DNA of 36,066 nt, from assembly GCA_964397665.1 (NCBI GenBank), contig CAYNJW010000002.1:12525-48590 (forward strand), read 5' to 3'. Positions 1,749-35,100 of the stretch are shown piece by piece (positions within the stretch are counted from its first letter, which is position 1; every line of letters starts with the position of its first letter). Both the position numbers and the translations under genes were made by a program. Origin of the DNA: Candidatus Woesearchaeota archaeon (GTDB lineage Archaea; Nanobdellota; Nanobdellia; Pacearchaeales; GW2011-AR1). The notes under the pieces are model-generated. The model made no database searches and was not told the origin of the DNA. It saw only the letters and a list, made by a program, of their open reading frames with translations.

Positions 1749-1815
1749 TTTCCTCTTAAAATAAATGCAGAAAAAGAATTATTTAAACCTTTTTAAAATG
1801 ATAAATTAGAAAACC

Positions 1816-1823
1816 CTTAAATA
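1816..1823 (+). promoter_or_regulatory. TATA-like box CTTAAATA, 29 nt upstream of ATG 1845
   Basis: Same spacing as the other promoters in this window; preceded by AAACC. Confidence 0.45.
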
Positions 1824-1844
1824 CTAACAAAAAAATTTAATAAT

Positions 1845-2792: not shown

Positions 2793-2794
2793 AT

Positions 2795-3352: not shown

Positions 3353-3373
3353 AACTTAAAAAATGAATTAGTG

Positions 3374-3381
3374 CTTAAAAG
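3374..3381 (-). promoter_or_regulatory. TATA-like box (CTTTTAAG on minus strand), 29 nt upstream of ATG 3352
   Basis: Spacing identical to the other promoters in the window. Confidence 0.45.
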
Positions 3382-3397
3382 GATTGTTATAATAGAT

Positions 3398-3405
3398 TTT
3401 ATAAA
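3398..3405 (+). promoter_or_regulatory. TATA box TTTATAAA, 29 nt upstream of ATG 3427 (ftsY)
   Basis: Exact consensus octamer at the recurrent -29 position. Confidence 0.55.
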
Positions 3406-3426
3406 TCAATTACACCTAGTTTTTTT

Positions 3427-4506: not shown

Positions 4507-4558
4507 AGAAAAAACTAATTACCAAAACCCCTAAAAACCCCTTAAACATATAAAAGAT

Positions 4559-5920
4559 ATGTTAGACAAAGTGGGAAATGCATTGAAAACTGGAATAAGA
4601 AAAATATCAAACGCTATAACAATTGATAAAAAACTTGTAGATGAAATTATAAAAGATTTGCAAAGAAGTTTAATTGAAGCAGATGTAAATGTCGAATTAG
4701 TTTTCGAATTAAGTCAAAAAATTAGAAAGCTTGCTTTGGATGAAGAAATAAAAGGTATAGAAAAAAAAGAACAATTAGTAAAATTAATCCATGACCAAAT
4801 AGAAATTCTTTTGGGTGAAGGAAAAGAATTAAAACTTAATAAAAAAGATAAAATTTTATTATTAGGTTTATATGGTTCGGGTAAAACAACAACGATTTCT
4901 AAACTTGCATTTTATTATTCTAAACGTGGGAAAAAGGTTGCAGTTCTTGGATTAGACACACAAAGACCTGCTGCGATGGATCAATTGGAACAAATGGCGA
5001 CAAAAGCTAAAGTTAAATCTTTCATAGATAAAGAAGAAAAGGATCCTTTGAAAATTTATCAAAACTATAAAAAAGAACTTGATAAATATGACTTAGTTTT
5101 TGTTGATACTGCTGGACGAGATGGATTAAATAAAGAACTATCAAAAGAAATAAAAAATATAGTAAAAAAGATAAAACCATCCCACAAAATTTTAATAATG
5201 CCTGCGGATATCGGTCAAACAGCAAAAACCCAAGCAGAAGAATTTCAAAAAGCTGTTGGTATCGATGGAGTAATTATTACTCGAATGGATGGAACATCAA
5301 AGGCAGGAGGAGCACTAACAGCTTGTGCTGAAACAAAGGCCCCAATTTATTTTATTGGTGTTGGTGAACAAATACATGAATTAGAATCTTTCAATCCTTC
5401 TTCATTCGTATCAAGAATTTTAGGAATGGGTGATTTAAATGCACTACTCGAAAAAGTTCAATCTGCAACTGATGAAAAACAACAAGAAAGAATTCAAAAT
5501 AGGCTTAAAGAAGGAAAATTCACTTTAATGGACGTATATAATCAATTAGAACAAATGAATAAACTAGGTAGCATGGATAAAATTCTCAGAATGGTTCCTG
5601 GAATCGGTGGAGCAATTGATAAAATCCCTAAATCAGAATTAGAAAAGCAAGAAAGAAAAATGCAACACTATAAACATGCAATCTCTTCTATGACAACTGA
5701 AGAAATTGAAACCCCTGAAATTTTTGATAAAGAAACTTCAAGGATAAAAAGAGTTGCAAATGGTTCTGGAACAACAACTAGCGAAATTAGGGAATTATTA
5801 AAACAGTATAAAATGTTAAAAGAGATGATGGGAATGCAACAAGGAATGTCTGAAGGAAATATTGATCCTAAAATGATTCAAAAGATGGCTAAAAAGTTTG
5901 GCGGAAAAATGAGAAGATAA
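4559..5920 (+). CDS. srp54: Signal recognition particle protein SRP54
   Basis: The NG domain carries GLYGSGKTTTISKLA, DTAGR and TRMDGTSKAGGAL. The C-terminal M domain is Met-rich (LKEMMGMQQGMSEG). Confidence 0.92.
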   Translation: MLDKVGNALKTGIRKISNAITIDKKLVDEIIKDLQRSLIEADVNVELVFELSQKIRKLALDEEIKGIEKKEQLVKLIHDQIEILLGEGKELKLNKKDKILLLGLYGSGKTTTISKLAFYYSKRGKKVAVLGLDTQRPAAMDQLEQMATKAKVKSFIDKEEKDPLKIYQNYKKELDKYDLVFVDTAGRDGLNKELSKEIKNIVKKIKPSHKILIMPADIGQTAKTQAEEFQKAVGIDGVIITRMDGTSKAGGALTACAETKAPIYFIGVGEQIHELESFNPSSFVSRILGMGDLNALLEKVQSATDEKQQERIQNRLKEGKFTLMDVYNQLEQMNKLGSMDKILRMVPGIGGAIDKIPKSELEKQERKMQHYKHAISSMTTEEIETPEIFDKETSRIKRVANGSGTTTSEIRELLKQYKMLKEMMGMQQGMSEGNIDPKMIQKMAKKFGGKMRR

Positions 5921-5932
5921 TTTTTTGATAAG

Positions 5933-6214
5933 TCAACTAATTGACAAATAATTTCCTTTAATCTTTAAACCCTCAAACACTGCTTCTCTTGCAACAGAAT
6001 ATTTTACTCCTTTCATTGAAGTAACTAATCTATACATCCTATATAACTTAATTTCTGAACGTTTTAAAGTAGCTTCAAGATTCAAAATTTTGTTATTTCC
6101 TCTTGAAATATTCTTTCTAAAAAAGTTATTAATCCTATACAAATCATACTCTAAAAGTTCTGTATCGTTAAAATCTTTAAAAAGATTGCCTGTTGGATTG
6201 AAAAAAGTGCCCAT
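5933..6214 (-). CDS. Hypothetical protein (93 aa), no family recognised
   Basis: The ORF has normal composition. Its ATG lies exactly 29 nt from the shared palindromic TATA box at 6236..6243, which supports expression. Confidence 0.4.
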   Translation of the reverse strand: MGTFFNPTGNLFKDFNDTELLEYDLYRINNFFRKNISRGNNKILNLEATLKRSEIKLYRMYRLVTSMKGVKYSVAREAVFEGLKIKGNYLSIS

Positions 6215-6235
6215 AATTTATAAAAAAATTCAAAC

Positions 6236-6243
6236 TTTATAAA
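6236..6243. promoter_or_regulatory. Palindromic TATA box TTTATAAA shared by divergent genes (ATG 6214 minus, ATG 6265 plus)
   Basis: The spacer 6215..6264 is exactly 50 nt (21 + 8 + 21). A second TTTATAAA sits at 6217..6224. Confidence 0.55.
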
Positions 6244-6264
6244 CTCTGGTTTCATTACCAAAAC

Positions 6265-6888
6265 ATGAAAAAATTAATTGCACAAGGAGCAGAAGCGAAA
6301 ATATATTTAGAAAATAATGAAATCTCAAAAGAAAGAATTCAAAAATCTTACAGACTTCCTGAACTAGATGAAAAAATTAGAAAAGCAAGAACAAGACAAG
6401 AATGTAGAATTTTATCAAGAGCAAATAAATTTGCAAATGTCCCAAAAGTTTTAAATGCTGACAAAAAAGGGTTTCCAAACGATAAATTTAATCTAAAAAT
6501 AGAATTCATAAAAGGAGATAGATTATCTGAAACTCTAAATAACTATAAAGAAAAAAAACAATTAGAAATAATGAAACAATTAGGTAATCAAGTGGCACTA
6601 CTTCATAAAAATGAAATAATCCATGGAGACCTCACTACAAGTAATGTAATTTTATCAAACTCTTCAAACAAAATATTCATCATAGACTTCGGGCTAGGAT
6701 TTATTTCAAAAAAAATAGAAGATAAGGGTGTTGATTTACATTTAATAAAACAAGCCCTTGAAGCAAAACACTTTCAAAATTGGAAAACACTATTTGATGA
6801 ATTTTTAAAAGGATATAATTTGGAAGATAAAGATAAAGTTCTAGAAAGATTAAAAGCTATTGAAAAAAGGGGAAGATATAGGCATTAA
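6265..6888 (+). CDS. bud32: Bud32/PRPK-type atypical kinase (KEOPS subunit), stand-alone
   Basis: The opening LIAQGAEAKIY, the catalytic loop IIHGDLTTSNVIL, IDFGLG, and DKGVDLHL are all typical of RIO-like Bud32. Confidence 0.85.
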   Translation: MKKLIAQGAEAKIYLENNEISKERIQKSYRLPELDEKIRKARTRQECRILSRANKFANVPKVLNADKKGFPNDKFNLKIEFIKGDRLSETLNNYKEKKQLEIMKQLGNQVALLHKNEIIHGDLTTSNVILSNSSNKIFIIDFGLGFISKKIEDKGVDLHLIKQALEAKHFQNWKTLFDEFLKGYNLEDKDKVLERLKAIEKRGRYRH

Positions 6889-6994
6889 AAATAATTGAGA
6901 GGCATTACAACTCCCTCAACTAAACCAAAAATAGATAATCTTAAAAATCAAATAAAATAATTAAATAATATTCAATAAGACAATAAACAACCAC

Positions 6995-7067
6995 AGCCCT
7001 GTAGTCTAGTGGTCAAGGATACGGCCCTTTGAAGGCCGTGACCCCGGTTCGAATCCGGGCAGGGCTA
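6995..7067 (+). tRNA. tRNA-Gln (anticodon UUG)
   Basis: This is the only GC-rich island in the window.
- Cloverleaf folded by hand: acceptor AGCCCUG/CAGGGCU, D stem GUCU/GGAU, anticodon stem CGGCC/GGCCG with loop CUUUGAA, T arm CCCGG-UUCGAAU-CCGGG, discriminator A.
- No CCA is encoded.
- The A1-U72 pair is the known archaeal tRNA-Gln hallmark. Confidence 0.9.
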
Positions 7068-7094
7068 TAAAATATTTATTTTAAGATGATTAAC

Positions 7095-7102
7095 TTTAAA
7101 AA
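7095..7102 (+). promoter_or_regulatory. TATA-like box TTTAAAAA, 29 nt upstream of ATG 7124
   Basis: Recurrent -29 spacing; supports ATG 7124 as the uS15 start. Confidence 0.45.
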
Positions 7103-7123
7103 CCTAAATTTTAACATATACTT

Positions 7124-7492
7124 ATGGAAAAAACTATGAAAAAACCATTATGGTTAAAAATGACTGAAAAAGAACTCATAAAAGTAATTGAAGAACTTGC
7201 AGATAAATATCAACCTGCACAAATTGGAATAATTTTAAGAGACCAATATGGAGTTCCGAGTACAAAAGTTTATGGTAAAAAATTAGGAGCATATCTTAAA
7301 GATTTGGGATTAGAATCTAATGCTGAATTTAAAAATGCTGAGAAAAAAGTAGAAAGATTGAAAGAACATCTAAAAGAAAATGTAACTGATAGAAAAGCAA
7401 AACATAAATTACAAAAAGCTCAATCAAGACTAAATATTCTAGGAAAATATTTCGGAATAGCAATAAAGAGAAAAAGAGATAAAAAAAGATAA
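7124..7492 (+). CDS. rps15: 30S ribosomal protein uS15 (S15P/S13e)
   Basis: PLWLKMTEKELIKVIEELADKYQPAQIGIILRDQYGVP matches the N-terminal S13e-type domain. The C-terminal S15 helical hairpin is present (RKAKHKLQKAQSRLN). Confidence 0.85.
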   Translation: MEKTMKKPLWLKMTEKELIKVIEELADKYQPAQIGIILRDQYGVPSTKVYGKKLGAYLKDLGLESNAEFKNAEKKVERLKEHLKENVTDRKAKHKLQKAQSRLNILGKYFGIAIKRKRDKKR

Positions 7493-7576
7493 ATTCTTTC
7501 TGTTTCCTTTCTAGTGGTTATAAAAGCTTATAAAGAAAATCATATTTATTCTAATAACTAATAAAAAAAGAGTAAT

Positions 7577-8896
7577 ATGAAAGAAGAGATTAAAAAAATA
7601 ACTGAAGAATTTCTAACAGCAACGAAAAATAAGAAAATAAGATTAATAAGTCACCATGATACTGACGGAATTACTTCTGCGTCTATCCTTGTAAAAACCT
7701 TTCAAAGATTGGGTAAACAATTCTCTGTAAGAATTGTAAAAGGACTAGATGAAAAAATTATAAAAGAGGAATTAAAAAGAAATGGAAAAGAAGTTCTTAT
7801 TTTCTCAGACCTTGCTTCTGGAAGTTTAGATTATTTTCAAGAATTAGAACAACCAATTTTTATTTTAGACCATCATGAATTAGACAAAACAAAAATTAAT
7901 CAAAATATAAAAATCTTGAATCCACATGTAACTGGTGGCGATAATATTTGTGGGGCAGCAGTATGCTATTTATTCTCTAAAGAAATTTCAGAGAAAAATA
8001 AAGATTTAGCAAAACTTGCAATTATTGGAATGATTGGTGACAGACATGAAAAAAATATCTCAAAAACATATCAAGAGATAATAAAAGATACTGAAGAATT
8101 AGAAATTAAAAAAAGCTTATTAATCTTCTCTGCAACTAGACCTCTTAGACGTTCATTGGAATATTCTACTTCATGTTATATTCCAGGAGTTACTGGATCC
8201 TCTGAAGGTGTTAAAGAGATTCTAAGGGAAAATAACATCTCTCCTGAAAGAACACTCAATGATCTTGATGAAAACGAATTATCGAGATTAGTAACTTCTG
8301 TAATGGTTAGAAGAGCAGGTAAAAGAGAAGAAGACGAAATAATCGGAAATGTTTATCTTCTAAAATTCTTTAATCGGAAAGAAGATGTTAGGGAATTGAG
8401 CGTTTTAATTAACTCCTGTTCTAGGCTTGGAAATCCAGCTACAGCTATTTTCTTCTGTTTGGAAAGTTCAAAAGCAAAAAAAGAAGCAGAAGATATTTAC
8501 ATAAAATATAAGCAAGAATTAATTAGTGGATTAAAAGTTGCAGAAAAAATAAATCTTAAAAAAGGCAAAGGGTTTGTAATTTTAAATGCAAAAGAACAAA
8601 TTAAAGATGCACTTATAGGTACAATCTGTTCAATGATTTCCTCTTCGCCAACTTATGAAGAAGGAACAATCCTTATTGGGATGGCTTATAATGATAATAA
8701 AATAAAAGTCTCTGCAAGAATTGCTGGAAGAAAAGGAAAGAATCTAAAAGAAGTAATGGAACAATCAGTAGTAAACTTAGAAGCAGAAGTTGGTGGACAT
8801 CAAATGGCTGCTGGTTGTTTAATAAAAAAAGAAGATGAGAATAAATTTATTGAAAATCTAACAAAACATTTAGAAATAGATATAGTTAAAATTTAA
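7577..8896 (+). CDS. recJ: RecJ/Cdc45-like DHH phosphoesterase (GAN-type, GINS-associated nuclease family)
   Basis: DHH motifs are present: SHHDTDGITSA, ILDHH, and GMIGDRH. The DHHA1-like motif is VGGHQMAAG. The gene follows uS15, as in many archaea. Confidence 0.8.
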   Translation: MKEEIKKITEEFLTATKNKKIRLISHHDTDGITSASILVKTFQRLGKQFSVRIVKGLDEKIIKEELKRNGKEVLIFSDLASGSLDYFQELEQPIFILDHHELDKTKINQNIKILNPHVTGGDNICGAAVCYLFSKEISEKNKDLAKLAIIGMIGDRHEKNISKTYQEIIKDTEELEIKKSLLIFSATRPLRRSLEYSTSCYIPGVTGSSEGVKEILRENNISPERTLNDLDENELSRLVTSVMVRRAGKREEDEIIGNVYLLKFFNRKEDVRELSVLINSCSRLGNPATAIFFCLESSKAKKEAEDIYIKYKQELISGLKVAEKINLKKGKGFVILNAKEQIKDALIGTICSMISSSPTYEEGTILIGMAYNDNKIKVSARIAGRKGKNLKEVMEQSVVNLEAEVGGHQMAAGCLIKKEDENKFIENLTKHLEIDIVKI

Positions 8897-13376: not shown

Positions 13377-14069
13377 ATGTCAAATAAAAAACACAAAAAT
13401 AACAGAATTTATAAATCAATGAAACCTATTATTAGAATGACACTAGATTCTGCACAAGTTGAACAAATTAAACAACATTTATTAAAACAAATAGGGAATT
13501 TTCCAGAGGAACAAAGAGAAATAATTAAACAGAAGATACTTTCAATGAATAATGAAGAAACTGAAAATTTTATAAAACAAAATCAATTAACCCATTTAAA
13601 TGAAGATGAAACTAAAAAAGAAGAAACAAAGTGTATCTTTTGTGCAATTATAGAGAAAAAAGTACCAACATATATTCTTGAAGAAAATAAAAGCAACATA
13701 GCAATTCTTGAAATAAACCCACTGAGTAAGGGACACTCAATGATTGTTCCAAAAAAACATTTAAAACTTGAAAAAATACCTTCTTCTTCATTTATTCTTG
13801 CTAAAAAAATAGTTCAAAGAATAAATAAAAAATTTATGCCAATTGAAGTTAAAATAAACTCTCAAAAAATTATGGGACATTCCCTCTTGGAAGTTTTACC
13901 AATTTATGGAAATGAAACAGAAAGGAAAAAAGCAACTGAAGAAGAACTTCTAGAACTTCAAACAATACTAAAAGCTCCCGAGAAAATAGTGAAAATAACT
14001 ACAACAAAAAAGAAGAAAGGAAAAAAGAAAAATAATAACATCCCAATATTGCCACCGAGAATTCCTTAG
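13377..14069 (+). CDS. HIT-like protein with N-terminal extension, degenerate histidine triad and poly-lysine tail
   Basis: The HIT-fold opening is CIFCAIIEKKVPTYILEENKSNIAILEINPLSKGHSMIVPKKH. GHSLLEVLP replaces the expected HxHxHxx motif. The start is uncertain: the in-frame ATGs at 13419 and 13437 are alternatives. Confidence 0.55.
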   Translation: MSNKKHKNNRIYKSMKPIIRMTLDSAQVEQIKQHLLKQIGNFPEEQREIIKQKILSMNNEETENFIKQNQLTHLNEDETKKEETKCIFCAIIEKKVPTYILEENKSNIAILEINPLSKGHSMIVPKKHLKLEKIPSSSFILAKKIVQRINKKFMPIEVKINSQKIMGHSLLEVLPIYGNETERKKATEEELLELQTILKAPEKIVKITTTKKKKGKKKNNNIPILPPRIP

Positions 14070-16333
14070 GACTCAAGTTTTTTAACTTCTTTTTCTAACC
14101 ATCTCTTCCATTCCGGAAAAACTTTTTCTGAAAGAGGCAAACCAAATTCTTTGGAAACTTCCTCAGAAATTAAATGGAAAGCATTATTTGATTTCACAGT
14201 GAACTCTGCTTCCAAAATTTCAGGATTTTTAATCTTATCAGAATAATTTACAGTTTCTTCTTTTATTTTCTGTCGAAGAACAATGTTATCCCACACTGCA
14301 TCCCAGTTTCCTGCCCAACCTTTCCTATTTGCAGCTATTGATTTAATAATCTCTGAATTTCCATTTATCAAATCATCTGAAGGTTTTAAGATATCTTCTT
14401 CAACATCATATTTCATCAAATCTATAAATCCTCCTTCTTCCAATGGGTCTTTAGTCCAATGTTTTCTAACCTCTGTAATTTGTAAAACTCTTCTCCAAGA
14501 ATTTAATCCATCAGGAGTTTTAATAGGGTTTGTAACAACAACACAGTCTGTTGCCTTAAATGAAGTTACTGGCACACCTAAATCATTCACCACTCTATCG
14601 AACACACCATATGGTGAAGCTCCGTGAATAGTTCCTGCAACAACATTCGCCAAGGCTCCAACTCTCATTGCCTCGTAAAGTGCTTTGGCTTCTCCACTTC
14701 TAATTTCTCCAACTATTAAGGAGGAATCTCCCAAACGCAGAGAGGCCCTAATTCCTTCCTCTGCTGAAACCTCTGTACTTTCACCCATAAGTGCTGAACG
14801 AACCTTCATAGATAAAATATCATAATTTAATTCTCTCATAGCATTCACTGGTAACTCAAGAGTATCTTCAACGGTAATTACTCTGTATCTTGGCATAATC
14901 TCCAACATTAAAGCACCCAATAAAGAAGTTTTACCAGAACTTCTAGTCCCTGCAACTAACATAGTCCTTGCACCATCAATTAAAAAACTTAAAACTCCTG
15001 CGCCGAGTGGAGAAATCATCTTATTCTTAATAAATAATGGCAACGTCCAAGGTTTACTTCTATGTCTTCTGAATGAATAAGCAATCCCTCCAGCAGAAAG
15101 TGGTTTCTGAATAATTGCAACTCTAGCCCCGACATTCTCAAGATATAAGCTAGTATCTAAGATAGGATTCGACTCATCCAATGCCCTTCCAGATAACATT
15201 CTAAACTTTGCTGCCCAAGAATCAACATCTTCCTGAGAAACAATAACATTCGAAGAGCATTCATCATAGTCATTATGTCTTAAAAAAACTGGTGAAAGTG
15301 AGGGAGGTGAATTAATTGAAATATCTTGTAAATTTTCATCCTGTAATAAAATTTCTATAATCCCAAACCCAATAGTATGTCTAACTAAAATCCTTGCAAG
15401 ACGCGATAAATCTTGACTACTCAAAGTTACTTTCTTATTGATAGCTAAGTCTTGTAATAAATCTTTTGCAACATTGGTAAAAATCTGCCGAGTCCTTTTT
15501 AAATCTCCTAATTCTTCTTCTGATGGTTTATGTTCAATTAAAACATTCCTTGCAAGATTTAGAAGCATGTGGTGATCTTCCTTCAGAGAATACTCTGGTG
15601 GAGAAATATGATAAAACAATTTTGCCTTATTTTCATCTTTTAATATTGTAACAAAACTCTTATCACTTCCTTCAGCAATTTCATATTGATCCATAACTTC
15701 TGCACCTTCTGGAATTTTAGCTAAAACCCTTGTAAAGGTAAAATTAGGCATGATATCTGACCGAAATAACTCTGAATAAATCTCTCTGTCATTAACTTTA
15801 TACTTCTCAAAAAAGGGTTTTAATTTTTTTACTAATTTTAATTCTTCAAAAGAATCTAAAAGCCTTTCTAAAAACCTAACATACTGAATACTAACTTCCC
15901 CCTTTTTCATAAAAGTTTTTTTTTCTATTAAAAAACCTCTTAAATTACGATAAGCCCTGATTGGGTCCCTCTTCAAAACAACATTTAAGAGATTATTCAA
16001 AAAAGAATATAATTGTGAAATATCTTTTGTAAAAAACATTTTTTCAGTAGACATTATTTTATCTTGTTTAATTAACTTATTATAAAGAATTGCAACTTCC
16101 TTTAACATTTGAACTTGTTCAAAATCATAAGAATAATTTCGTTGTTGAACTAATACTACTCTTGAAATTTGTGGATTTTCACCGAGAAAATCAATTGTTC
16201 TTGCTAGAACTTCTGGAGAATCAACTAATGACGGAACTGAAGAAGCACCAAGATAATTTACATAGAGAACACTCTCTCCAGATTCCCGATTAACTTCAGT
16301 AGCATAAAGCTCACTATCTTTTTTAAAAATCAT
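14066..16333 (-). CDS. Long (755 aa) FlaI/PilB/VirB11-superfamily secretion ATPase
   Basis: - Walker A: AGTRSSGKT (nt 14927..14953).
- Asp box: RVITVEDTLEL.
- Walker B: SSLIVGEIRSGEA.
- His box: AGTIHGASP.
- It has an N-terminal extension of ~330 aa and a C-terminal extension of ~130 aa relative to the core. Confidence 0.85.
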   Translation of the reverse strand: MIFKKDSELYATEVNRESGESVLYVNYLGASSVPSLVDSPEVLARTIDFLGENPQISRVVLVQQRNYSYDFEQVQMLKEVAILYNKLIKQDKIMSTEKMFFTKDISQLYSFLNNLLNVVLKRDPIRAYRNLRGFLIEKKTFMKKGEVSIQYVRFLERLLDSFEELKLVKKLKPFFEKYKVNDREIYSELFRSDIMPNFTFTRVLAKIPEGAEVMDQYEIAEGSDKSFVTILKDENKAKLFYHISPPEYSLKEDHHMLLNLARNVLIEHKPSEEELGDLKRTRQIFTNVAKDLLQDLAINKKVTLSSQDLSRLARILVRHTIGFGIIEILLQDENLQDISINSPPSLSPVFLRHNDYDECSSNVIVSQEDVDSWAAKFRMLSGRALDESNPILDTSLYLENVGARVAIIQKPLSAGGIAYSFRRHRSKPWTLPLFIKNKMISPLGAGVLSFLIDGARTMLVAGTRSSGKTSLLGALMLEIMPRYRVITVEDTLELPVNAMRELNYDILSMKVRSALMGESTEVSAEEGIRASLRLGDSSLIVGEIRSGEAKALYEAMRVGALANVVAGTIHGASPYGVFDRVVNDLGVPVTSFKATDCVVVTNPIKTPDGLNSWRRVLQITEVRKHWTKDPLEEGGFIDLMKYDVEEDILKPSDDLINGNSEIIKSIAANRKGWAGNWDAVWDNIVLRQKIKEETVNYSDKIKNPEILEAEFTVKSNNAFHLISEEVSKEFGLPLSEKVFPEWKRWLEKEVKKLES

Positions 16334-17506: not shown

Positions 17507-17977
17507 TTACTTTGAACTTGTAATTACTTTTCCAACAACACCTGCAGCAATTAATAAAACCACTAATCCTGTCCACTTACTTTCTCCAAGAGATTTGAAA
17601 AACCCAAAATTAATAACCCAATTGAAAACATAGGAAGAAGAAATTACAAAAATTAAAATTAAAACTGCCAAAACTGCTAAAGCAACCTTATTTCCAATTA
17701 ACTTATCTAATCCTTTTCCATGAGTGAAACTAAGAAGAGTTAAAATAAAAAACAAACAAACAACAAAAACGACAACCCATGAAGAACTGACTCTTACAAA
17801 CTCAACAAGAGAAGCATTGAAAATAAAAAAAGAAGATAAAAAAAGAGAAATCATTAAAGCAACAGCATTGTTTTCTCCCAAAATTCCAGTTTTTATAAGT
17901 AATGCATAAATTAAAACAAATACAAATAAAAAACTAATAATCGGCATAAAATAACCAATCGTTGAAACATCTACCAT
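17507..17977 (-). CDS. Membrane protein, tandem paralog 3 of 3
   Basis: The opening is MPIISFLFVFVLIYALLIKTGILGENNAVALMISLFL, followed by 4-5 helices. It starts 2 nt after the stop of paralog 2. Confidence 0.6.
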   Translation of the reverse strand: MVDVSTIGYFMPIISFLFVFVLIYALLIKTGILGENNAVALMISLFLSSFFIFNASLVEFVRVSSSWVVVFVVCLFFILTLLSFTHGKGLDKLIGNKVALAVLAVLILIFVISSSYVFNWVINFGFFKSLGESKWTGLVVLLIAAGVVGKVITSSK

Positions 17978-17979
17978 AA

Positions 17980-18501
17980 TTAACTATTTCCTTTGGTCCC
18001 CTTTTTATTAGGGCTTATGACTGCTTTAATTAATAATCCCAAACCAACGATAAAAACAACTGTCCAAAAATAATCTTGAATCCAATAACCTACTCCTCCG
18101 CCGACTCCAAAATCATTACCCCATCTGATAAACGCCCAAATAACTACTACACCTCCAATTGTCCAACCAAGCCAAGACAAATTTGCATCTTTAATCTCTC
18201 CGGAAAAAAATAACCCAACAAAGATTAAAACAACCAAAAGAATTGAAATACCAATACCAAATAACGGGAAAATACTTTCAAAAAAAGTTTTAACAAAACC
18301 AAATTGCAAAGAAACCAATCCAATTGCTAAAGCAAGGATCGCATTTATGCCTTTTACCTTATCCTCTAAACCAAAAATTTGAGACTTTTGTAAAATTCCA
18401 AATGTAACAGCAAAAATAATTAAAAAAGGAAGAACATATGAAAAAAAACCAAAGTTATACCACTGTTCTAAAATACCTTCAAGATTCATCATTGGAGCCA
18501 T
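17980..18501 (-). CDS. Membrane protein, tandem paralog 2 of 3
   Basis: The opening is VLPFLIIFAVTFGILQKSQIFGLEDKVKGINAILALAIGL. The same motif order is seen in 18547..19029. Confidence 0.6.
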   Translation of the reverse strand: MAPMMNLEGILEQWYNFGFFSYVLPFLIIFAVTFGILQKSQIFGLEDKVKGINAILALAIGLVSLQFGFVKTFFESIFPLFGIGISILLVVLIFVGLFFSGEIKDANLSWLGWTIGGVVVIWAFIRWGNDFGVGGGVGYWIQDYFWTVVFIVGLGLLIKAVISPNKKGTKGNS

Positions 18502-18546
18502 AACAAATTAGAGAATACTTTATTTATATATGTTTTGTTTAAAAAT

Positions 18547-19029
18547 TCATTCTTTACTTTTTCCGCCGATAGCGGCTGCAACTGCCCCACCGACTATTGC
18601 CAACATGATTACTGTCGGCAACCAAGAACCAACATTACTTGAACCAGTAAAAAACTTATTATAGAAACCTGAAAAATAAATTACTAACACTACTACAAAA
18701 ATAGCTGACAAGGCAAGAAAGGTATTCTTAATTCCCTTTCCTAACTTTAATCCATCTTTATTATCGCTTGCAACAAAACCGTATAATACTAAAAAAATTA
18801 AAATTACAACCAAACCAACGCCTAACCAAGGAATTAAATTTACAATAAAATTTCTTGCAATAGGCACACTAATTAAAATTAATCCTACAACTAAAGAAAT
18901 TAAAGCATCTATTTGATTTTTCTTTTCTCCTAACGCTTTTGTTTTTTGTAACACTGCGAAAACTAAAACAAAAACTAGTAAAAAAGGTAAAACACCTTCA
19001 ATGAATAATGGAGTATCTAATGGCCACAT
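18547..19029 (-). CDS. Membrane protein, tandem paralog 1 of 3
   Basis: The opening is VLPFLLVFVLVFAVLQKTKALGEKKNQIDALISLVVGL, and the protein has a Gly/Ala-rich last helix. It has its own TATA box at -28. Confidence 0.6.
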   Translation of the reverse strand: MWPLDTPLFIEGVLPFLLVFVLVFAVLQKTKALGEKKNQIDALISLVVGLILISVPIARNFIVNLIPWLGVGLVVILIFLVLYGFVASDNKDGLKLGKGIKNTFLALSAIFVVVLVIYFSGFYNKFFTGSSNVGSWLPTVIMLAIVGGAVAAAIGGKSKE

Positions 19030-27428: not shown

Positions 27429-27703
27429 AAAAAAGAATTTTATTAATTATAACAATAATTTTAATTTTTATAATTATCTTAATATCAACATTTCAAAAGA
27501 ATACTTATCAAGGAAAAATAACAAAAATAAAAAATTATAATAAAAGAACAATAATAAACTTAAAAAATTATTCGATGGATTTTGTATTATTTGATAATAT
27601 AAGATATCTAGAGTCTTGTAATTCTCTAAAAATCGAAGGTGAAAAAAATACATATAAAAATAAATCTCAGATAATCATCAATAAAATAATATGTTTGAAA
27701 TAA
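27425..27703 (+). CDS. Membrane-anchored small OB-fold-like protein
   Basis: An N-terminal TM helix is followed by a pattern typical of OB folds (GKITKIKNYNKRTIINLKN..VLFDN..LKIEGEKNTYKNKSQIIINKI). An ATGA overlap links it to the DRG gene. Confidence 0.45.
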   Translation: MKKRILLIITIILIFIIILISTFQKNTYQGKITKIKNYNKRTIINLKNYSMDFVLFDNIRYLESCNSLKIEGEKNTYKNKSQIIINKIICLK

Positions 27704-28884
27704 TCCTTTTCATTTTACTCGGAGTTTTTGCAGGAACCATAACAGGCTTAATTCCGGGAATCCATACAAACTTAATTGCTGTTTTCATACTTGGGACGCT
27801 ACCCTTTTTACAACAAATTCCTGTATTAAATTTATTAATTTTTCTTGTTGCAATGGCAATGACACATACCTTTGTAGATTTCATCCCTTCAATTTATCTT
27901 GGTGCCCCAGATGAAGACACATCATTATCTGTTTTACCAGGTCATAAACTTCTTCTTCAAGGAAAAGCACATAATGCTATAAAATACACCACACTCGGTT
28001 CAATAATTGCAATAATTATTTTAATAATCCTAATCCCCATTTCTTTTTTCATCCTTGCAAAGATTTACCCTTTCATTGAAAAATTAATGTCTTGGATTCT
28101 TATTTGGATTTCTTTCTTTTTATTATATAACGAAAAAGAAAAGAAAACTATTTCTTTCATATTTTTTATGCTTGCTGGATTTCTAGGGTTAGCAAATTCA
28201 AATTTAAACCTGGCACAACCTCTTCTACCCCTTCTAACTGGTCTTTTTGGTTCATCCACATTAATTTATTCAATCTCTAAAAATTCAAAAATACCTGAAC
28301 AAATAATTGAAAAAATTAAAATTTCAAAGAAAGAAATAATAAAACCTGCAATAACTTCAGCAATAATCTCTCCTTTTTGCTCATTTCTTCCGGGACTTGG
28401 AAGCAGTCAAGCAGCAATTATTGGGCTTTCATTCAATAAAAAAACAACAGACAAAGAATTCTTAATTTTATTAGGTAGCATAAATACATTAGTTATGGGT
28501 TTCTCCTTTGTAACTTTATACTTAATAAACAAAACAAGAACTGGAATTGCTTCTGCAATCTCTGAAATAACAAAAATAACTTTCAATCAACTAACCTACT
28601 TAATAATAGCAATAATAGTTTCCTCAATTTTAGCCACAGTAATAACTTTAAACTTATCAAAAATTTTCGCAAAGCATTCTAAAAAAATAAATTATCAAAA
28701 ATTATCAAAAATTATTTTATTACTTTTAACAGTAATAATTTTTTCTATAACTGGATTACTAGGATTCTTTGTATTCATAATCTCTACAATTCTTGGATTA
28801 ACTTGCATGGCTTATAATGTTAAAAGAAGTTTCTTAATGGGTTGTCTTTTAATCCCTTCAATATTATTTTATCTTCCAATCTAA
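27691..28884 (+). CDS. Polytopic membrane protein, TctA/DUF112-like (COG1784)
   Basis: The N-terminal LLGVFAGTITGLIPGIHTN resembles the TctA GxxxGxxPG signature. There are about 10-11 helices. It overlaps the previous gene by 13 nt. Confidence 0.45.
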   Translation: MFEIILFILLGVFAGTITGLIPGIHTNLIAVFILGTLPFLQQIPVLNLLIFLVAMAMTHTFVDFIPSIYLGAPDEDTSLSVLPGHKLLLQGKAHNAIKYTTLGSIIAIIILIILIPISFFILAKIYPFIEKLMSWILIWISFFLLYNEKEKKTISFIFFMLAGFLGLANSNLNLAQPLLPLLTGLFGSSTLIYSISKNSKIPEQIIEKIKISKKEIIKPAITSAIISPFCSFLPGLGSSQAAIIGLSFNKKTTDKEFLILLGSINTLVMGFSFVTLYLINKTRTGIASAISEITKITFNQLTYLIIAIIVSSILATVITLNLSKIFAKHSKKINYQKLSKIILLLLTVIIFSITGLLGFFVFIISTILGLTCMAYNVKRSFLMGCLLIPSILFYLPI

Positions 28885-29870
28885 CTTCCAATTCCAGTAG
28901 TTGCACCAAAAATTATATTTCCTTCACAAGTTCCTGCAACACCTCTTGGAACATAAATTCTAAAATATGCTTCTTTAAACTCTGAGATTTCTAAATCATT
29001 TACCCTACTACTCAAACCAAAATATTTTGTAACTGGTGAACTTGTAAGATTCAAATAATTGTTCTCAAATTCAGATAATGTTAAAGAACCAGCTGTTGAA
29101 GCAGTAAGATTATATTTTTCATATTCTGCATTAATTAATTTGTTAGAACCTTTTGAACAATTCATAGCATAACCATCTCCTCTAGTTTGAGCATATCCTT
29201 CGAGAGTAAGATTAAACAAAGTATTTCCATAATTAATAATACTTGTTATATTCTCCTCTGAAACTGCGGTAGCATTTACTTCCCCATAATAAATTGTATC
29301 TGGTAATCCTAAAGCTAAAAGCTGACTAATAGTAAATAAGGTACTATTTTGATCTTGCCAATTAGAAGAATCATTCACAGTTAGAGTTAAATTCCAAGAA
29401 CCTGGATTTGCGTAATATTCTACTTGGAAAGTACAATTTGCTAAAACCTCATATTCATCACCATAACTTTCATTTATTGAACAAGAACTATTGAGATAAT
29501 GATCTCCTTCATCATCTGAATCGCCATAATTTGACTCAGAAGTATCGAATAAAACAGCACCAACCCACCCATTTGTTTGGTTAATATCTTCTTGACCATT
29601 ATAATCTTTTATAACAGCTAAACAACTAAGCGTGGTAACATTCGCAGGTGTTAAATCAAAATCTGAACCTTCATTACATTCGATGCTTGTAATTTCTGGA
29701 TAAACATTTCCAATATCTAACAATGTTTTAACTGTTACATTATCCTTGCCTGTAATTGCATCTACATTAAAACTAAAAGTAAAAACTAGTAAAAAACTAA
29801 CTAATAAAATTTGACTAAAAACTAAAAACTTATTTTCTATTTTAAAAACCATTATCTTAACTTTGAACAA
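28881..29870 (-). CDS. Secreted, sequon-rich two-domain beta protein, unknown family
   Basis: The signal peptide ends FSFNVDA. I count 15 N-x-S/T sequons in 329 aa, and there are several Cys pairs. The start is either TTG 29870 or ATG 29852. No C-terminal anchor is present. Confidence 0.6.
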   Translation of the reverse strand: MFKVKIMVFKIENKFLVFSQILLVSFLLVFTFSFNVDAITGKDNVTVKTLLDIGNVYPEITSIECNEGSDFDLTPANVTTLSCLAVIKDYNGQEDINQTNGWVGAVLFDTSESNYGDSDDEGDHYLNSSCSINESYGDEYEVLANCTFQVEYYANPGSWNLTLTVNDSSNWQDQNSTLFTISQLLALGLPDTIYYGEVNATAVSEENITSIINYGNTLFNLTLEGYAQTRGDGYAMNCSKGSNKLINAEYEKYNLTASTAGSLTLSEFENNYLNLTSSPVTKYFGLSSRVNDLEISEFKEAYFRIYVPRGVAGTCEGNIIFGATTGIGS

Positions 29871-29915
29871 TTTTGATTATTCATTTTGCTTAATTTAATT
29901 ATAAAATCTTTCATC

Positions 29916-30662
29916 CTAATTAACCTCCACATAAAGATAATATGCTGTTGCACCCTCAAATCCTTGGGCACCGTTTTCTGGAACTAACATTTGAAAATCA
30001 TAATCATTTTCATCGTAACCATCTGCCATATCTTCAATGAGAGTAGAATAAACAATGCTTGAAGAATCAGATAAAACAACTTCTTCAAAATCTGTACTCT
30101 GAGACACATTATCCACATAAGTATTCAAAGCTGAACAAGAGCCCAGAGTAATTGGTATTGCCCCAACATAAAATGCATTACTATTTTGTGAATCAAAAGT
30201 AGCCGTAATATTATCATCAACATTTGAGTGATTCATGGCTACATTCTCAGATTCTATTTGTGTAGGTGTTGCACAAGCAATTGAAGACCATTGAATAGTG
30301 CTTGAATTTCTTGTTGCATAAACTTGACCATTTGTAGAAGTTAAATCCCAATCATAAATTGTAGAACCTGAAGCATCTTGTAAGGTAAAAGCACCATTTA
30401 CCCAACCAACAAAAGCCTTCCAATGAGGATTCTGAACTGAAGTTGATAAATTAATTGTTGCAACATAACCTCCAGAAATATTAATTACTGAACCTCCAGA
30501 ATTTCCACCATAAGTTTCATTAGAAATATGAGTTATTGTAGGTCTATTTGGGGCAGCAGAAACCATAATAGCTCCAAAACTAAAAATCGCAACAATTGTA
30601 AGTAAAACTACTAAAACTCTTAAGGCTTCTATCTCACCGCTTTTTTCCATATCTCTTCTCAT
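29916..30662 (-). CDS. Secreted protein, paralog of 30758..31459; domain shared with C-terminus of giant adhesin
   Basis: The hydrophobic N-terminus ends VSAAPN. The motifs are WKAFVGWVNGAFTLQDASGSTIYDW, two conserved Cys, YDFQMLVPENG, and the C-terminus YYLYVEVN. Confidence 0.7.
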   Translation of the reverse strand: MRRDMEKSGEIEALRVLVVLLTIVAIFSFGAIMVSAAPNRPTITHISNETYGGNSGGSVINISGGYVATINLSTSVQNPHWKAFVGWVNGAFTLQDASGSTIYDWDLTSTNGQVYATRNSSTIQWSSIACATPTQIESENVAMNHSNVDDNITATFDSQNSNAFYVGAIPITLGSCSALNTYVDNVSQSTDFEEVVLSDSSSIVYSTLIEDMADGYDENDYDFQMLVPENGAQGFEGATAYYLYVEVN

Positions 30663-30737
30663 TTTCTTTTCCTTATATAATTTATTATTCCTCTTTGAAT
30701 AATTCCTTTCTCTCCCTCAAAAGAGGTCACCAATATT

Positions 30738-30757
30738 AATAAAAATAAAAAATAAAT
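30738..30757 (-). terminator. Oligo-T tract directly after the stop of 30758..31459
   Basis: The minus strand reads TTTATTTTTTATTTTTATT immediately after the TAA. T-runs are common in this AT-rich DNA, so this is weak. Confidence 0.3.
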
Positions 30758-31459
30758 TTATTCTAGTTCTACCCAGAAATTATATTGTGTTACAGCTGTA
30801 TCTGTTCCATGTCCATCTTCCAATACTAACATCTCAAAATCGTGAGTTGCCGCATCAAAACCAACAGTATCTTCTTGTAACAATGCTGTAAAAATAATGT
30901 TCACATTATCTGACAAAAGAACTTCATCGAAAGTTCCTGCACCCGCATTATTAAACACTTTAGTATTATTACAGACTCCAGCAGTAAATTGGTGATTATT
31001 TGTGAAAAACTCTGCATGGTCGTCGAAAGCAAAAGTTTCTTGAACACCATCAACATCATCACTTGCAATATTAAAATTTGATTCTAAAGTTGCTTGTTCT
31101 GCCTGAGAAGCACACCGAATACTTGACCAAGTAATTGATGGAGCTGTTGAAGCATAAACTTCACCCTCCGGACTTGCCAAAGACCAATTATACATCACAT
31201 TATCTGATGAATCTGCTAATTGGATTGTACCAGTAACATTACCAAAATAACCTTGCCAGGTTTGTGTTGTTGTATAACCAAATAAAGTTATTTCTGTAAC
31301 ATTTCCAGCCAAAGCATTTGGATCATTATCTGGTGAGTCTGCAACTGCACTAGATGAAGTTCCAACAGTAACATCTGAACCAGATGGAACAACTGCCAAA
31401 GCAAAGCTAGTCATAAAACAAAATACAAATAATGCAAGCATTAACCTTTTGTGTATCAT
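30758..31459 (-). CDS. Secreted protein, paralog of 29916..30662; domain shared with C-terminus of giant adhesin
   Basis: The signal peptide is MIHKRLMLALFVFCFMTSFALA. The motifs are WQGYFGNVTGTIQLADSSDNVMYNW, two conserved Cys, HDFEMLVLEDG, and the C-terminus YNFWVELE. Confidence 0.7.
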   Translation of the reverse strand: MIHKRLMLALFVFCFMTSFALAVVPSGSDVTVGTSSSAVADSPDNDPNALAGNVTEITLFGYTTTQTWQGYFGNVTGTIQLADSSDNVMYNWSLASPEGEVYASTAPSITWSSIRCASQAEQATLESNFNIASDDVDGVQETFAFDDHAEFFTNNHQFTAGVCNNTKVFNNAGAGTFDEVLLSDNVNIIFTALLQEDTVGFDAATHDFEMLVLEDGHGTDTAVTQYNFWVELE

Positions 31460-31520
31460 ATATCTCTTTTTTACCTCTTTTAGTTAGTTTTAGGTAGTAA
31501 TACTTCTTTATAAATGTTTC

Positions 31521-31588
31521 CATATCTGAAAACTATTTCCAAAAATGAAAACTGATTTCATATCTGAAGAAATCTACCAAAAATGAAA
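31521..31588. promoter_or_regulatory. Two copies of a bipartite motif CATATCTGAA-N8-CCAAAAATGAAA phased 38 nt apart (operator-like)
   Basis: CATATCTGAA occurs at 31521 and 31559. CCAAAAATGAAA occurs at 31539 and 31577. The repeat lies between the TATA-like boxes of the divergent secreted-protein operon and the wHTH gene. Confidence 0.5.
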
Positions 31589-31591
31589 GGA

Positions 31592-31599
31592 TTTAAATA
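31592..31599 (+). promoter_or_regulatory. TATA-like box TTTAAATA, 29 nt upstream of ATG 31621
   Basis: Recurrent spacing; it directly follows the second repeat unit. Confidence 0.45.
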
Positions 31600-31620
31600 G
31601 TTAATCCCACTTAGAAATAC

Positions 31621-32172
31621 ATGAGAGATACAGATTTACTAAAGGAATTAGTTGATGAAAAAATTGTAAAAACACTAAATGTTTTTGCAAAAAATCCTGA
31701 AAAAAAATTTTATTTAACTGAATTAACAAAAATAACAGGAGTTAATGTTTCATCAACATTTAGAATAATTAGTAAACTTGTAGAATCTGGATTTGTAAAA
31801 TCAAAAGTGATTGGTAGAACAAGATATTACAAAATAGATAATGCTGCAACAACTCAAAGAATGTTGAAAATGCTTGGATTTGTTGAAACTGCTTCTTCTG
31901 AACCTTTAACAAATTTTATTGAAAAGATAAAAACAATGGGGAGGATTGATAAAATCATTTTAAAAACAAAAACTCAAACAAATGCAAAATTAATCATTAT
32001 TGGTGACTTCATACCTGTAGATAGAATAACAAGAATTGCAGAAGAGATAAAAACAAATTCAAAATTTGAAATAAACTTTGTAGAATTAAACAATAAACAA
32101 TTTGAAAAACTATATGGATTTGAAGAATCAATGAGAACTGGGCAAGTACTTTACAAATCACAAAAAGAATAA
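31621..32172 (+). CDS. Winged helix-turn-helix transcription regulator (ArsR/TrmB-like N-domain) with uncharacterised C-domain
   Basis: FYLTELTKITGVNVSSTFRIISKLVESGFVKSKVIGRTRYYKI is a classic wHTH. Its stop abuts the stop of the giant gene at 32172/32173. Confidence 0.7.
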   Translation: MRDTDLLKELVDEKIVKTLNVFAKNPEKKFYLTELTKITGVNVSSTFRIISKLVESGFVKSKVIGRTRYYKIDNAATTQRMLKMLGFVETASSEPLTNFIEKIKTMGRIDKIILKTKTQTNAKLIIIGDFIPVDRITRIAEEIKTNSKFEINFVELNNKQFEKLYGFEESMRTGQVLYKSQKE

Positions 32173-35100
32173 TCAAATAAGTTCAACATAAAATAAAGCT
32201 TTGTCTGAATCTGAAGAATTATAGTTTCTTAATGCTGCAGGAACTTTAATCTCATAATCGTATTTTCCAAATTTCCCTTGTAAATCATTACTTATCTTTG
32301 AAATGAAAACCAAATCTTCTGAAGAATCAAACTCTTCATCTTGAGAATCTGAAGAATCCCACAGAATTCCAGTTATGAAATTACTATTATTTGTGGAATT
32401 AATAATTGGTACATCTTCTACTACCTTTGAAAAGGTTGTAAAATTCGCTTTATCTTTTGCGAATCCCCCAAAAGTATAAGTATTCTTAACAGAATCCTCA
32501 AAATTCTCCATGCCTAATAAATTATCTATCTCTTCAAAATCTGAATTACTTTGTGAATTGTCTTTTTTCTTCCCAATAGCTTGTAAGTTTAACCAATCAA
32601 CTGAAGCTTCATAATCTGTAACATACAAATTTCCACCCTTAAAATTATCTGCTAACCAAGTAAGAACTTTATTTGCGCCACTATCTTTTAAAGCAAATTC
32701 CGAAGATGAAGAAATATCTCCATATAAAATATACCATGCACCTACAGAAATATTCCTTGAAGCAAAATTATTTGTTTCGTTTGTTTCATTTAAATCGCCT
32801 ACAGAATTAATTGGTGGATCTATCAAAACATAAATTTCTGAAGTACCCATCTCTGCCTGCCAAATGACAGAAGTATTTGTTGAATTGAATCTTGAGATAT
32901 TTAATAAAATATCTTGGCCAATCTGGATACCTCCAGAAGAAGGATTTCCATCATAAAACTGAACTTTAATATTTTTAGAATCTGAACCCTCATTATTAAA
33001 AATTTCAGCAGAAATCAAAACCATTTCTTTTTCCTTAGGATTTGATTGATTAAAGCTAATAAGTGACACATTTATAAAAAAATCCGGGAGAGTTAAATTA
33101 AACCATCTTTGTTCAGAGATATTTGAATTTCCAACCCTATCCCTGCAAGTAACACTCCAATAATGATATCCTTGTCCTATTATATTACTAAAAACTTGCT
33201 CAGTGTTTAAAATTCCAGATGTAACCAAAAGATTATCTTTTCTCTTAATTCCATCTATATTCAAGTCACATCTAAGAAGACTATCTAGAATATCTGAGGC
33301 ATTCCAACTGAAAGAAACTCTTCGCTCATTAAAATCTATTGCAGAATCATTAATCAACTGAACAAGTGTTATTTTTGGAGGGGTTTTATCAATATAAAAA
33401 TTTCTAAAAGAAGAATTACCAAAAACATCATTTAAATCATAACAACCAACAGACCAGTTATGTTCTCCTTCAGAAATACTTGTTAAACTAAAATTATTTT
33501 CTTGACCATTTCCAACAGCATTATCTGATCCATTAATAACTCCATCTAAATAAATACTACAATTTTTTATTCCAATAGCATCATAAGGTTTATATGTCAA
33601 ATTAATCTGAGAAAGATTCGTCCTAAACTCTGTATTCGGTGAAATTAACTCAATAGTTGGCGGAGCAATAACTGTAAAATTTTGAGCCAAACTTAAATTA
33701 GAATTATTTGCCAAATCAAAACATTCAATATCCCAAGAATGATTCCCGTCATTTACTAACAAAAAAATCTCTTCATTAGAATTATTTAAAACATCTAAAC
33801 TTGATTCAACTTCACCGTCAATACTAAGATTACATGAAACTATTGGAGAAAGATTATCTAAAACAGAAAAATTAAAGCTAACATTATTTGTGTTTACAAC
33901 CTCTGAATCTAAGGGTGAAAAAATTTCTAAACTTGGATTTTGATTATCCACATATACTGTCCAAACTTCTGAACTTCCAACAAGACCTGTAACATCAGTA
34001 ACATTAATCTTCCAGTTATATTCTCCATTAGGAAAATTTACACTAAAATTATTGTAATTAAAATTATTTAACTTTGAAGAATTTGTTTGATTTAAAACAG
34101 AATTAATAATTAAAGAAGCATTTGTAAATCCTTGATCATCTTCAATATAATATGTGAAATTAAAATTTCCTTGTCCCATCCAAGTATTATTTTCTGGGCT
34201 TATTAAAGAAACAACAGGATTTGAAAATTTTGTAAAATTATAAACTAAACTAGCTCCAAGATTATTTGATGAATCTGAACAGTTTACCTGCCATTTTTTA
34301 AAACCATCTGAAATTCCTGAAATGTTCCTTGTCATGATAGTATTATTCAAAGCATAAAAAGAATCCACAATAACATCATCAATAGACAAATTACAAGACA
34401 AATTACTATCTACTGAATCTATGACTGTAAAATTAAAACTAACATTGCTTTCATAAATATCTTCACCGTTTGGTTCAAAAAGGGTTATGTCTGGTGCGCC
34501 ACCATCAATCTTAAAAAATCTTTCTTCACTAATTGTCTTTCCAATAAAATAATCTGAACAATTCACATACCAACTATAATCTCCATCTAACAAGCCAAAA
34601 AGACTAAAATTATTTTCTTGATTATTTAAAATATTTGACTGATTAAACATTTTAAAATTATTATTTAAATAAAGACTACAATAACTCAAACCAACATTAT
34701 CTGAAGGAATATAAGTTAAATTAATAGCTGTTATTTGATATGAAGATTCATTCTCAGTCACCAAACTAATTTCTGGATTTTCACTAAGATTAAATTCAAA
34801 AGTGTCACTTAATCCTTCTCTTGCAGAATCATCAGAACAAGTTAGCTTCCATTGTTTTGCTCCGTCAGTTAAATTTTCTTCGAGTCTTGAACTGAAAGTC
34901 CCATTAGAAACAGAAAATGAATCATCAATAACGACACCATTTAATGTAAGACTACAAATTAACTCAGAATCTAATGAATCCATAACTGTAAAATTAAAAT
35001 ACACATCTGAAAAATTTACCAAAGAATTATTTATTGGAGAAACTAAATTAATTTCAGGCTCATTCAAATCTACACTGAAATTCCTCACCGTATCTTCAAA

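Follow-up and report, generated by a model that had tools for sequence, protein, structure and literature searches.

Pacearchaeota and Woesearchaeota are abundant, uncultured and genome-reduced archaea that are assumed to be host-attached, and we know of no account of how they are attached or of what material they exchange. The locus at 28881-36066 on the minus strand of the window (the whole stretch of DNA analysed here, 36,066 nucleotides in length) encodes, in the order of transcription, a giant protein, two small secreted proteins designated as A and B, and a further secreted protein, D. An initial annotation had claimed that A, B and the C-terminus of the giant protein share an unclassified secreted domain, which might be an assembly or anchoring unit. 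The question raised by the locus is whether these three regions are indeed homologous and what their common domain of ~190 aa, designated as X below, could do on the cell surface. Homology of the three regions was established, and X was found in three fixed architectures, i.e., as a stand-alone protein, at the C-terminus of anchor-less proteins of up to 6414 aa and in the ectodomain of an ATPase, which are defined here together with the conserved superlocus that encodes them. X loci are concrete candidates for an attachment or transfer apparatus of Pacearchaeota and Woesearchaeota.

Homology of A, B and the giant C-terminus

Protein A (type 'smA') is encoded by an open reading frame (ORF) of 233 aa at 30758-31459 on the minus strand and consists of a predicted Sec signal peptide (aa 1-23), a linker and X (aa ~49-233, window 30761-31315). 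Protein B (type 'smB') is encoded on the same strand by an ORF of 248 aa at 29916-30662 and consists of a predicted Sec signal peptide and X (aa ~62-248). The giant ORF (32173->36066, minus strand) has no stop up to 36066, so that at least 1297 aa are visible, and its C-terminal X occupies 32173-32745, stop codon included (aa ~1108-1297 of the visible residues).

The three sequence blocks, the Cys motifs and the C-termini on which the claim of a shared domain had been based were read in the three proteins exactly as described, the C-termini being YNFWVELE and YYLYVEVN in A and B and LFYVELI in the giant protein. By pairwise BLASTP, A and B were aligned over their full length (E 9e-28, 29 % identity) and are clear paralogues, B being, as judged from this alignment, an old paralogue of A, whereas the giant tail gave E values of 2.1 and 0.61 with A and B, respectively, neither of which is significant. 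The quoted blocks by themselves are therefore insufficient for a claim of homology between the small proteins and the giant one. These pairwise results would also be expected if only A and B were related and the likeness of the giant C-terminus were due to chance or composition, all the more as every sequence concerned is rich in N, S and T and comes from a genome of 28 % guanine plus cytosine (GC).

This explanation is regarded as refuted by the profile comparisons. A hidden Markov model (HMM) of the A family was built from 122 sequences. The small-family HMM matched B at E 3.7e-68, and its positions 66-232 were colinear with residues 1110-1296 of the giant protein, the match reaching both C-termini. 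Comparison of the small family with the giant type by hhalign gave a probability of 95.9 % (E 5.5e-9), which was raised to 97.3 % (E 2e-11, 167 columns) with the larger alignments from 81 related loci, so that 160-167 colinear columns support the relation. For profile scoring, the sequences of the window were excluded from the profiles and 2000 composition-preserving shuffles were used as the null. The small-family profile scored 26.0 bits on the giant tail (shuffle maximum 12.6), and the giant-type profile scored 25.7 bits on A (shuffle maximum 11.2) and 22.3 bits on B (shuffle maximum 13.4). Clustered at 50 %, the giant-type X gave 1710 representatives, of which 688 had E <= 1e-30; the architecture counts for the giant type given here cover the 149 best of the 1710, and 110 of these independent representatives were matched by the small-family profile. 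As composition-matched controls, D and a 455-aa secreted protein encoded at the same loci were compared with X by hhalign, and neither exceeded 28 % over at most 40 columns, by which either of them as a diverged X was also ruled out.

The AlphaFold2 (AF2) models of A (predicted local distance difference test, pLDDT, 79; predicted TM-score, pTM, 0.71) and of the giant tail (pLDDT 70.5, pTM 0.76) have the same order of elements, i.e., four strands, two helices and six strands leading to the C-terminus, as opposed to the unrelated folds that a chance likeness would allow. The three-way homology put forward initially is thus upheld at the level of profiles.

Several features distinguish the small type from the giant type. 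Of 142 small-family members, 99 % keep the pair Cys116/Cys163 of A, which the giant type lacks, as had been claimed. The motifs WQGYFGNV, YNWS, DDVDG and HDFEMLV are conserved in the small family, in which acidic or His residues (D137, E141, H148, D207, E214 and H217) are invariant or nearly so; in the giant type, DDVDG is changed to F.DS and HDFE to YDYE. Hydropathy analysis gave one N-terminal hydrophobic segment each for A and B and no other. A starts with MIHKR-LMLALFVFCFMTSFALA followed by VVPSG, in which KR precedes a hydrophobic core and cleavage is placed between ALA and VV; in B, the cleavage region is AIMVSA followed by APNRP. Judged by inspection and hydropathy, both signal peptides appear to be of the Sec type cleaved by signal peptidase I (SPase-I), in agreement with the earlier reading that they are not of class III. 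The median number of N-glycosylation sequons is 8 per small protein, and the sequons N53, N74 and N91 of A are conserved in 75-79 % of the small family. P25 and G27 of A, right after the predicted cleavage site, are conserved as well and lie in a segment (residues 21-54) that AF2 leaves disordered (pLDDT < 50); this conserved and, in the model, disordered N-terminal segment is the sole hint toward a possible joining by donor strands. The conserved sequons, the invariant Cys pair and the conserved mature N-terminus fit extracellular structural glycoproteins.

The X of the giant protein has neither the Cys pair nor the N-terminal extension of the small proteins and is fused directly to a CARDB domain (PF07705; 32758-33087, minus strand), which was recognised with E 1.1e-6 and 29.2 bits against a cut-off of 22.7 (match at window 32737-33129). 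The passenger region upstream (33088-36066, minus strand) is made of repeated Ig-like modules rich in N-x-S/T (Big_7, E 1.3e-14; Big_13, E 7e-14), and besides X only Big_7, Big_13 and CARDB repeats were recognised. No hydrophobic segment was found in the visible part. Among the 149 giant-type representatives, which span 180-6414 aa, X ends at most 5 residues from the C-terminus in 147 and no protein has two copies of X in tandem. The smallest complete form (P0148 and P0136) consists of a signal peptide, CARDB and X in ~325 aa, so that CARDB plus X appears to be a fixed unit. A segment resembling a transmembrane (TM) helix after the N-terminal region was found in only 3 of 124 representatives with a Met start and more than 250 aa. 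With no hydrophobic segment beyond the signal peptide and no PGF motif, the earlier observation of neither a C-terminal TM nor a PGF-CTERM anchor is confirmed.

As the giant ORF runs open to the end of the window, the N-terminus of its product is not seen here. In the public annotation the gene (P0147, 1261 aa) begins with an ATG at 35958, which looks internal and gives no signal peptide; orthologous giants have 1700-3300 aa or more. Either the protein begins upstream of the window, or a split or a frameshift in the assembly has interrupted the gene.

Distribution of X and organisation of its loci

The A family comprises at least 972 clusters at 90 % identity. Among 120 clusters listed, all are of ~220-290 aa and none has a Pfam domain, and the few named members are hypothetical proteins of Pacearchaeota, Nanoarchaeota or Nanobdellota. 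The X of A, B and the giant protein had no match in Pfam or NCBIfam (for the giant C-terminus, none at E <= 1). Sequence profile searches of PDB with the small family, the giant type and D returned only CARDB structures, by way of the CARDB tail. The models of A and the giant tail were compared by Foldseek with a PDB library running to April 2026, in which no structure reached E <= 0.001 (lowest values 0.23 and 0.13, respectively), and none reached this threshold for the model of A in BFVD (best 0.033); the best matches across PDB and BFVD had a TM-score of at most 0.22. Full-text searching of the literature returned no description of the X domain, of the locus or of the X-bearing ATPase. The domain therefore remains unclassified in the libraries searched, and the assignment of the window to a DPANN-like organism agrees with its homologues, which are labelled Pacearchaeota, Woesearchaeota or Nanoarchaeota. 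X is a beta-rich extracellular domain of ~190 aa specific to DPANN archaea of the Pacearchaeota/Woesearchaeota type, very widespread in this lineage and new to the family and structure libraries searched. By description only, a candidate for the X or D family is cls.004306 (NEQ255), a secreted family confined to DPANN archaea, for which Makarova, Wolf and Koonin (2019, PMC6393860, Table 1) list members in 43 of 67 DPANN genomes, a location beside S-layer-like proteins and no known function; it may be the same as one of the two.

For the comparison of loci, 79 loci from GTDB species representatives and 2 from public assemblies were used, and their ORFs were classified with profiles. The arrangement seen in the window, designated as module I, consists of a giant gene ending in X, often a helix-turn-helix (HTH) gene on the opposite strand, an A-like gene, a B-like gene and D, which is sometimes doubled. 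The order giant, A-like, B-like and D was found in 26 loci from other species. In these 26 loci the B-like gene always follows the A-like one with a gap of at most 132 bp, and D follows the B-like gene, mostly with a 1-bp overlap; A, B and D are therefore considered as one operon. Each set of orthologues of module I is ~50 % identical across species, compared with the 29 % between the paralogues A and B.

Protein D (ORF of 329 aa, 28881-29870, minus strand) is the third gene product of this operon, secreted and Cys-rich; several of its Cys residues are invariant, and its sequons are numerous. It had no match in Pfam, NCBIfam or PDB sequences, and its probability against the X families by hhalign was at most 4.4 %. 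D is a second unclassified family in the operon, unrelated to X. The gene between the giant one and A (31621-32172, plus strand) is divergent from A and convergent with the giant gene and encodes a winged-helix regulator of an ArsR/IclR/MarR-like kind (HTH_IclR, E 1.2e-5; ArsR/SmtB subfamily, E 4e-4). An HTH gene ('hW') occupies the same place between the giant and A-like genes in 13 related loci (including L009, L014, L020, L021, L026, L037, L040, L064, L074, L076 and L077).

A second arrangement, module II, comprises four divergent small genes, an ATPase gene (1120-1250 aa), genes for two K/E-rich coiled-coil proteins, an A-like gene, an ArsR/Lrs14-like HTH gene, a further A-like, B-like or D-like gene, and genes for a polytopic HEGGH membrane protein, the 455-aa secreted protein and a 73-aa winged HTH protein; often there is also another giant ending in X. 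The ATPase gene was located at 3794-7168 in locus L001 and also in L002, L005, L006, L015, L024, L025, L027, L031, L034 and others. Its product has a basic N-terminus, a TM segment (aa ~26-54), an ectodomain of ~620 aa, a second TM segment (aa ~674-706) followed by KRYKERRKRY, and a C-terminal P-loop domain. The ectodomain contains X (residues ~61-253), two CarboxypepD_reg domains and Ig-like domains, X thus being placed between the two TM segments on the outside. By hhalign, the ectodomain matched the small family with 98.3 % (E 1.8e-14, 177 columns), and its profile scored 22.6 bits on A (shuffle maximum 13.8) and 31.1 bits on B (shuffle maximum 8.5). The cytoplasmic domain matched PF01935 (DUF87) with 39.8 bits (cut-off 23.2) and HerA_C with 33.9 bits (cut-off 22), it has the Walker A motif GATGMGKS, and among solved structures HerA hexamers come closest to it (E 2e-6). 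By these family cut-offs, the ATPase is assigned to the FtsK/HerA superfamily.

Other proteins of module II were also recorded. The conserved HEGGH protein ('M50'; 11639-12760 in L001, with orthologues) has ~10 hydrophobic segments and no match in Pfam or NCBIfam, and its HEGGH motif suggests a putative intramembrane metalloprotease. Five highly K/E-rich, predicted coiled-coil proteins of 127, 203, 232, 107 and 285 aa are encoded at 1712-3681 (minus strand) and 7208-8381 (plus strand) of L001, the 107-aa and 127-aa ones being paralogues. In almost every module-II locus, the genes for the K/E-rich proteins and for a 101-aa Cys-rich single-TM protein lie around the ATPase gene, and none of these proteins could be assigned to a family.

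At least 25 assemblies gave one locus each of module I and module II. On several contigs the fetched ranges abut or overlap (L006/L043, L005/L030, L015/L062, L025/L026 and L027/L070) in the order module II, giant gene and module I, for which reason a superlocus of roughly 35 kb is assumed, of which the window most likely shows the downstream end.

The window (28 % GC) also carries archaeal housekeeping genes for diphthamide synthase, an ERCC4/Hef-like nuclease, GINS, eIF2-alpha and SRP54/FtsY. Facing the end of the A–B–D operon, in convergent orientation, is a gene for a membrane transporter of the TctA family (27691-28884, plus strand), which shares 4 bp with the 3' end of D and is absent from the conserved genes of the related loci surveyed. 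A separate surface system is represented by an ATPase of the T2SSE family (type IV filament; 755 aa, 14066-16333, minus strand), and ~1.2 kb from it, on the same strand, three paralogous polytopic membrane proteins of ~160 aa without a family match are encoded at 17507-19029.

Possible roles of X

X is present in three forms in the same compartment, i.e., on the ATPase, which is the only membrane-tethered form, in A, B and their paralogues, which have no passenger, and as the last domain of anchor-less surface proteins. Given this distribution, an association of X with X is the simplest model. It is proposed, with a chance that we put at somewhat less than even, that X serves as a shared module for co-assembly or anchoring in a dedicated surface apparatus of DPANN archaea. 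A, B, D and the giant protein would be secreted through Sec and would carry N-glycans; the X of A and that of B would bind each other to form a fibre, a stack of rings or a lattice and would also bind the X ectodomain of the two-TM HerA/FtsK-like ATPase as the base of the structure; and variable anchor-less passengers (here the Ig-like/CARDB giant, a putative adhesin, elsewhere proteins of 180-6414 aa) would be docked through their terminal CARDB–X. The idea of an assembly or anchoring unit had come with the initial annotation and is supported indirectly, by the C-terminal position of X, the gene order in 26 loci and the X ectodomain of the ATPase, while the binding step itself is drawn from architecture.

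Several points weigh against this proposal. X–X binding and polymerisation are deduced from the arrangement of domains and genes. The ATPase ectodomain profile scored 1.5 bits on the giant X, which is not significant, so the link between the X of the ATPase and that of the giant appears to be transitive only, via the small family. The ATPase module is outside this window, and because the window ends inside the giant gene, the synteny of related loci is the basis for assuming it in this genome. The model of the giant X is of moderate confidence (pLDDT 70.5), and by Foldseek against PDB neither model resembles a known pilin, thread, TasA, cannula or S-layer structure. A bolder form of the proposal, in which the X proteins form an extracellular tube or stalk on a hexameric two-TM translocase of the HerA/FtsK type, with variable giant adhesins attached via CARDB–X, and in which the superlocus of ~35 kb would encode a new class of archaeal machine for cell-to-cell attachment and transfer that lets Pacearchaeota/Woesearchaeota episymbionts cling to hosts and take up DNA or other macromolecules, is considered quite unlikely.

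The strictly C-terminal position of X in anchor-less surface proteins would suit any wall-binding module, and X could instead be a lectin-like anchor, each X binding a common envelope component (S-layer glycan or lipid) or a host glycan and not another X, with A and B soluble or surface-bound and the giant tethered by its X. The beta-rich fold with conserved aromatic and acidic motifs, which are only partly kept between the giant and the small type, is consistent with such binding. This explanation leaves two facts unaccounted for, namely the two old passenger-less paralogues in a fixed operon beside the giant in 26 species and the presence of X on an ATPase that is already anchored by two TM segments, and no similarity of X to a lectin or carbohydrate-binding module was found in Pfam or PDB; a lectin-like anchor is thus held to be unlikely, if still worth consideration. 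The invariably C-terminal placement behind very diverse passengers, and the linkage to a membrane-bound ATPase of the FtsK/HerA superfamily and to the HEGGH protein, by which X could be processed, would also agree with a C-terminal sorting or secretion domain that is recognised by the ATPase, the small proteins being substrates or adaptors. This reading is weakened by the ordinary Sec signals of the carriers, by which no second export step is evident in a single-membrane cell, and by the X of the ATPase, which is on the outside and not on the cytoplasmic face. Moreover, ~190 aa is large for a sorting tag, the passenger-less X proteins are ~50 % identical across species, and no match to models of the TIGR04183/C-terminal domain (CTD) type was obtained, all of which makes a sorting function improbable.

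The near-invariant acidic and His residues of the small family might point to a catalytic domain, for example a glycan- or envelope-modifying one that is carried by stand-alone proteins, by the ATPase and by the giants, and two members are named 'enzyme related to lactoylglutathione lyase' by the Joint Genome Institute (JGI). In the giant type, most of the residues concerned are not kept, as the changed motifs indicate, no enzyme family or fold was matched, and the JGI names are isolated automatic labels of 2 of the 120 clusters listed, so that an enzymatic function is regarded as highly improbable. Co-assembly or anchoring through X is accordingly kept as the preferred reading for the comparisons below.

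Comparison with known systems

Type IV pilins and archaellins were rejected for A and B, which by inspection have no class III signal peptide and, after their single N-terminal hydrophobic segment, are beta-rich. The system described by Makarova et al. 2015, a putative secretion system of archaea (arCOG01314, MoxR, vWA; PMC5898192), was rejected because its components differ.

The subunits of the Sulfolobus threads (Saci_0406/0405) are reported to be processed by SPase-I and heavily N-glycosylated, to have a conserved stretch that directly follows the cleavage site and to be encoded as paralogues in one operon (PMC9715654). A and B share with them the predicted Sec-type signal peptide, the conserved sequons, P25 and G27 after the cleavage site and the tandem paralogues. 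No entry for threads, for TasA-like bundling pili (Pyrobaculum) or for cannulae (CanA of Pyrodictium) was among the Foldseek matches in PDB. The structures of all three are expected in the library searched, and we know of no system of these kinds that has a HerA-like ATPase bearing a subunit-like ectodomain or a family of giants ending in the subunit domain.

With the tip adhesins of chaperone-usher pili (FimH and PapG), the locus has in common that a large, adhesin-like protein ends in a domain homologous to the adjacent small secreted subunits. FimH has a receptor-binding domain and a pilin domain homologous to the rod subunits and is without an N-terminal donor strand; by analogy, the lack of the N-terminal extension of the small proteins in the giant X would be a matching asymmetry, strand donation being putative here. 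The locus differs in that it is archaeal, with no chaperone or usher and no outer membrane, and in that the homologous domain of the giant is C-terminal and preceded by CARDB. An incomplete Ig-like pilin fold was not recognised, chains of FimA being matched by Foldseek only at E 1.3-2.4 and TM-scores of 0.16-0.21. As the fold comparisons gave no match to either the FimH-type or the thread-type systems, the X apparatus is not regarded as a member of either.

The X-ATPase resembles the FtsK/HerA/VirB4 translocases, such as those of Ced, VirB4/TraC of type IV secretion systems (T4SS) and EssC of the type VII secretion system, in that it is a membrane-embedded P-loop ATPase of the superfamily and is encoded with secreted and surface proteins. 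It differs from them in its unusual ectodomain and in scores far under the equivalog cut-offs. Its best NCBIfam match is CedD, the DNA-translocating ATPase of Ced, with 36 bits against a cut-off of 600, and no Ced partners were recognised among its neighbours, by which CedD/CedB of the Ced DNA-import system was rejected; a VirB2/CedA1-like pilin and other T4SS or Ced components were not seen among these neighbours either. To our knowledge, no ATPase with the architecture TM–X–CarboxypepD_reg–Ig–TM–ATPase has been described.

As regards known modules for surface retention, PGF-CTERM/archaeosortase or C-terminal TM anchoring was rejected from the missing PGF motif and the rarity of later TM-like segments, and the CTD of the type IX secretion system (T9SS), a beta-sandwich of ~80-100 aa, was rejected since no match in Pfam or NCBIfam was found at E <= 1 and X is of ~190 aa with two helices. 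From the X proteins, there was no Pfam or NCBIfam match to the S-layer homology (SLH), PGF-CTERM or T9SS CTD families. X is like these modules in that a single copy of it forms the very end of many surface proteins that differ widely in length and have nothing else in common, and unlike them in being much larger and in being found also as a stand-alone protein and on an ATPase. X thereby offers an explanation of how giant surface proteins could stay on the cell without a known anchor, and if the structural model is true, the X proteins would constitute a new kind of archaeal surface assembly that is independent of the type IV filament machinery.

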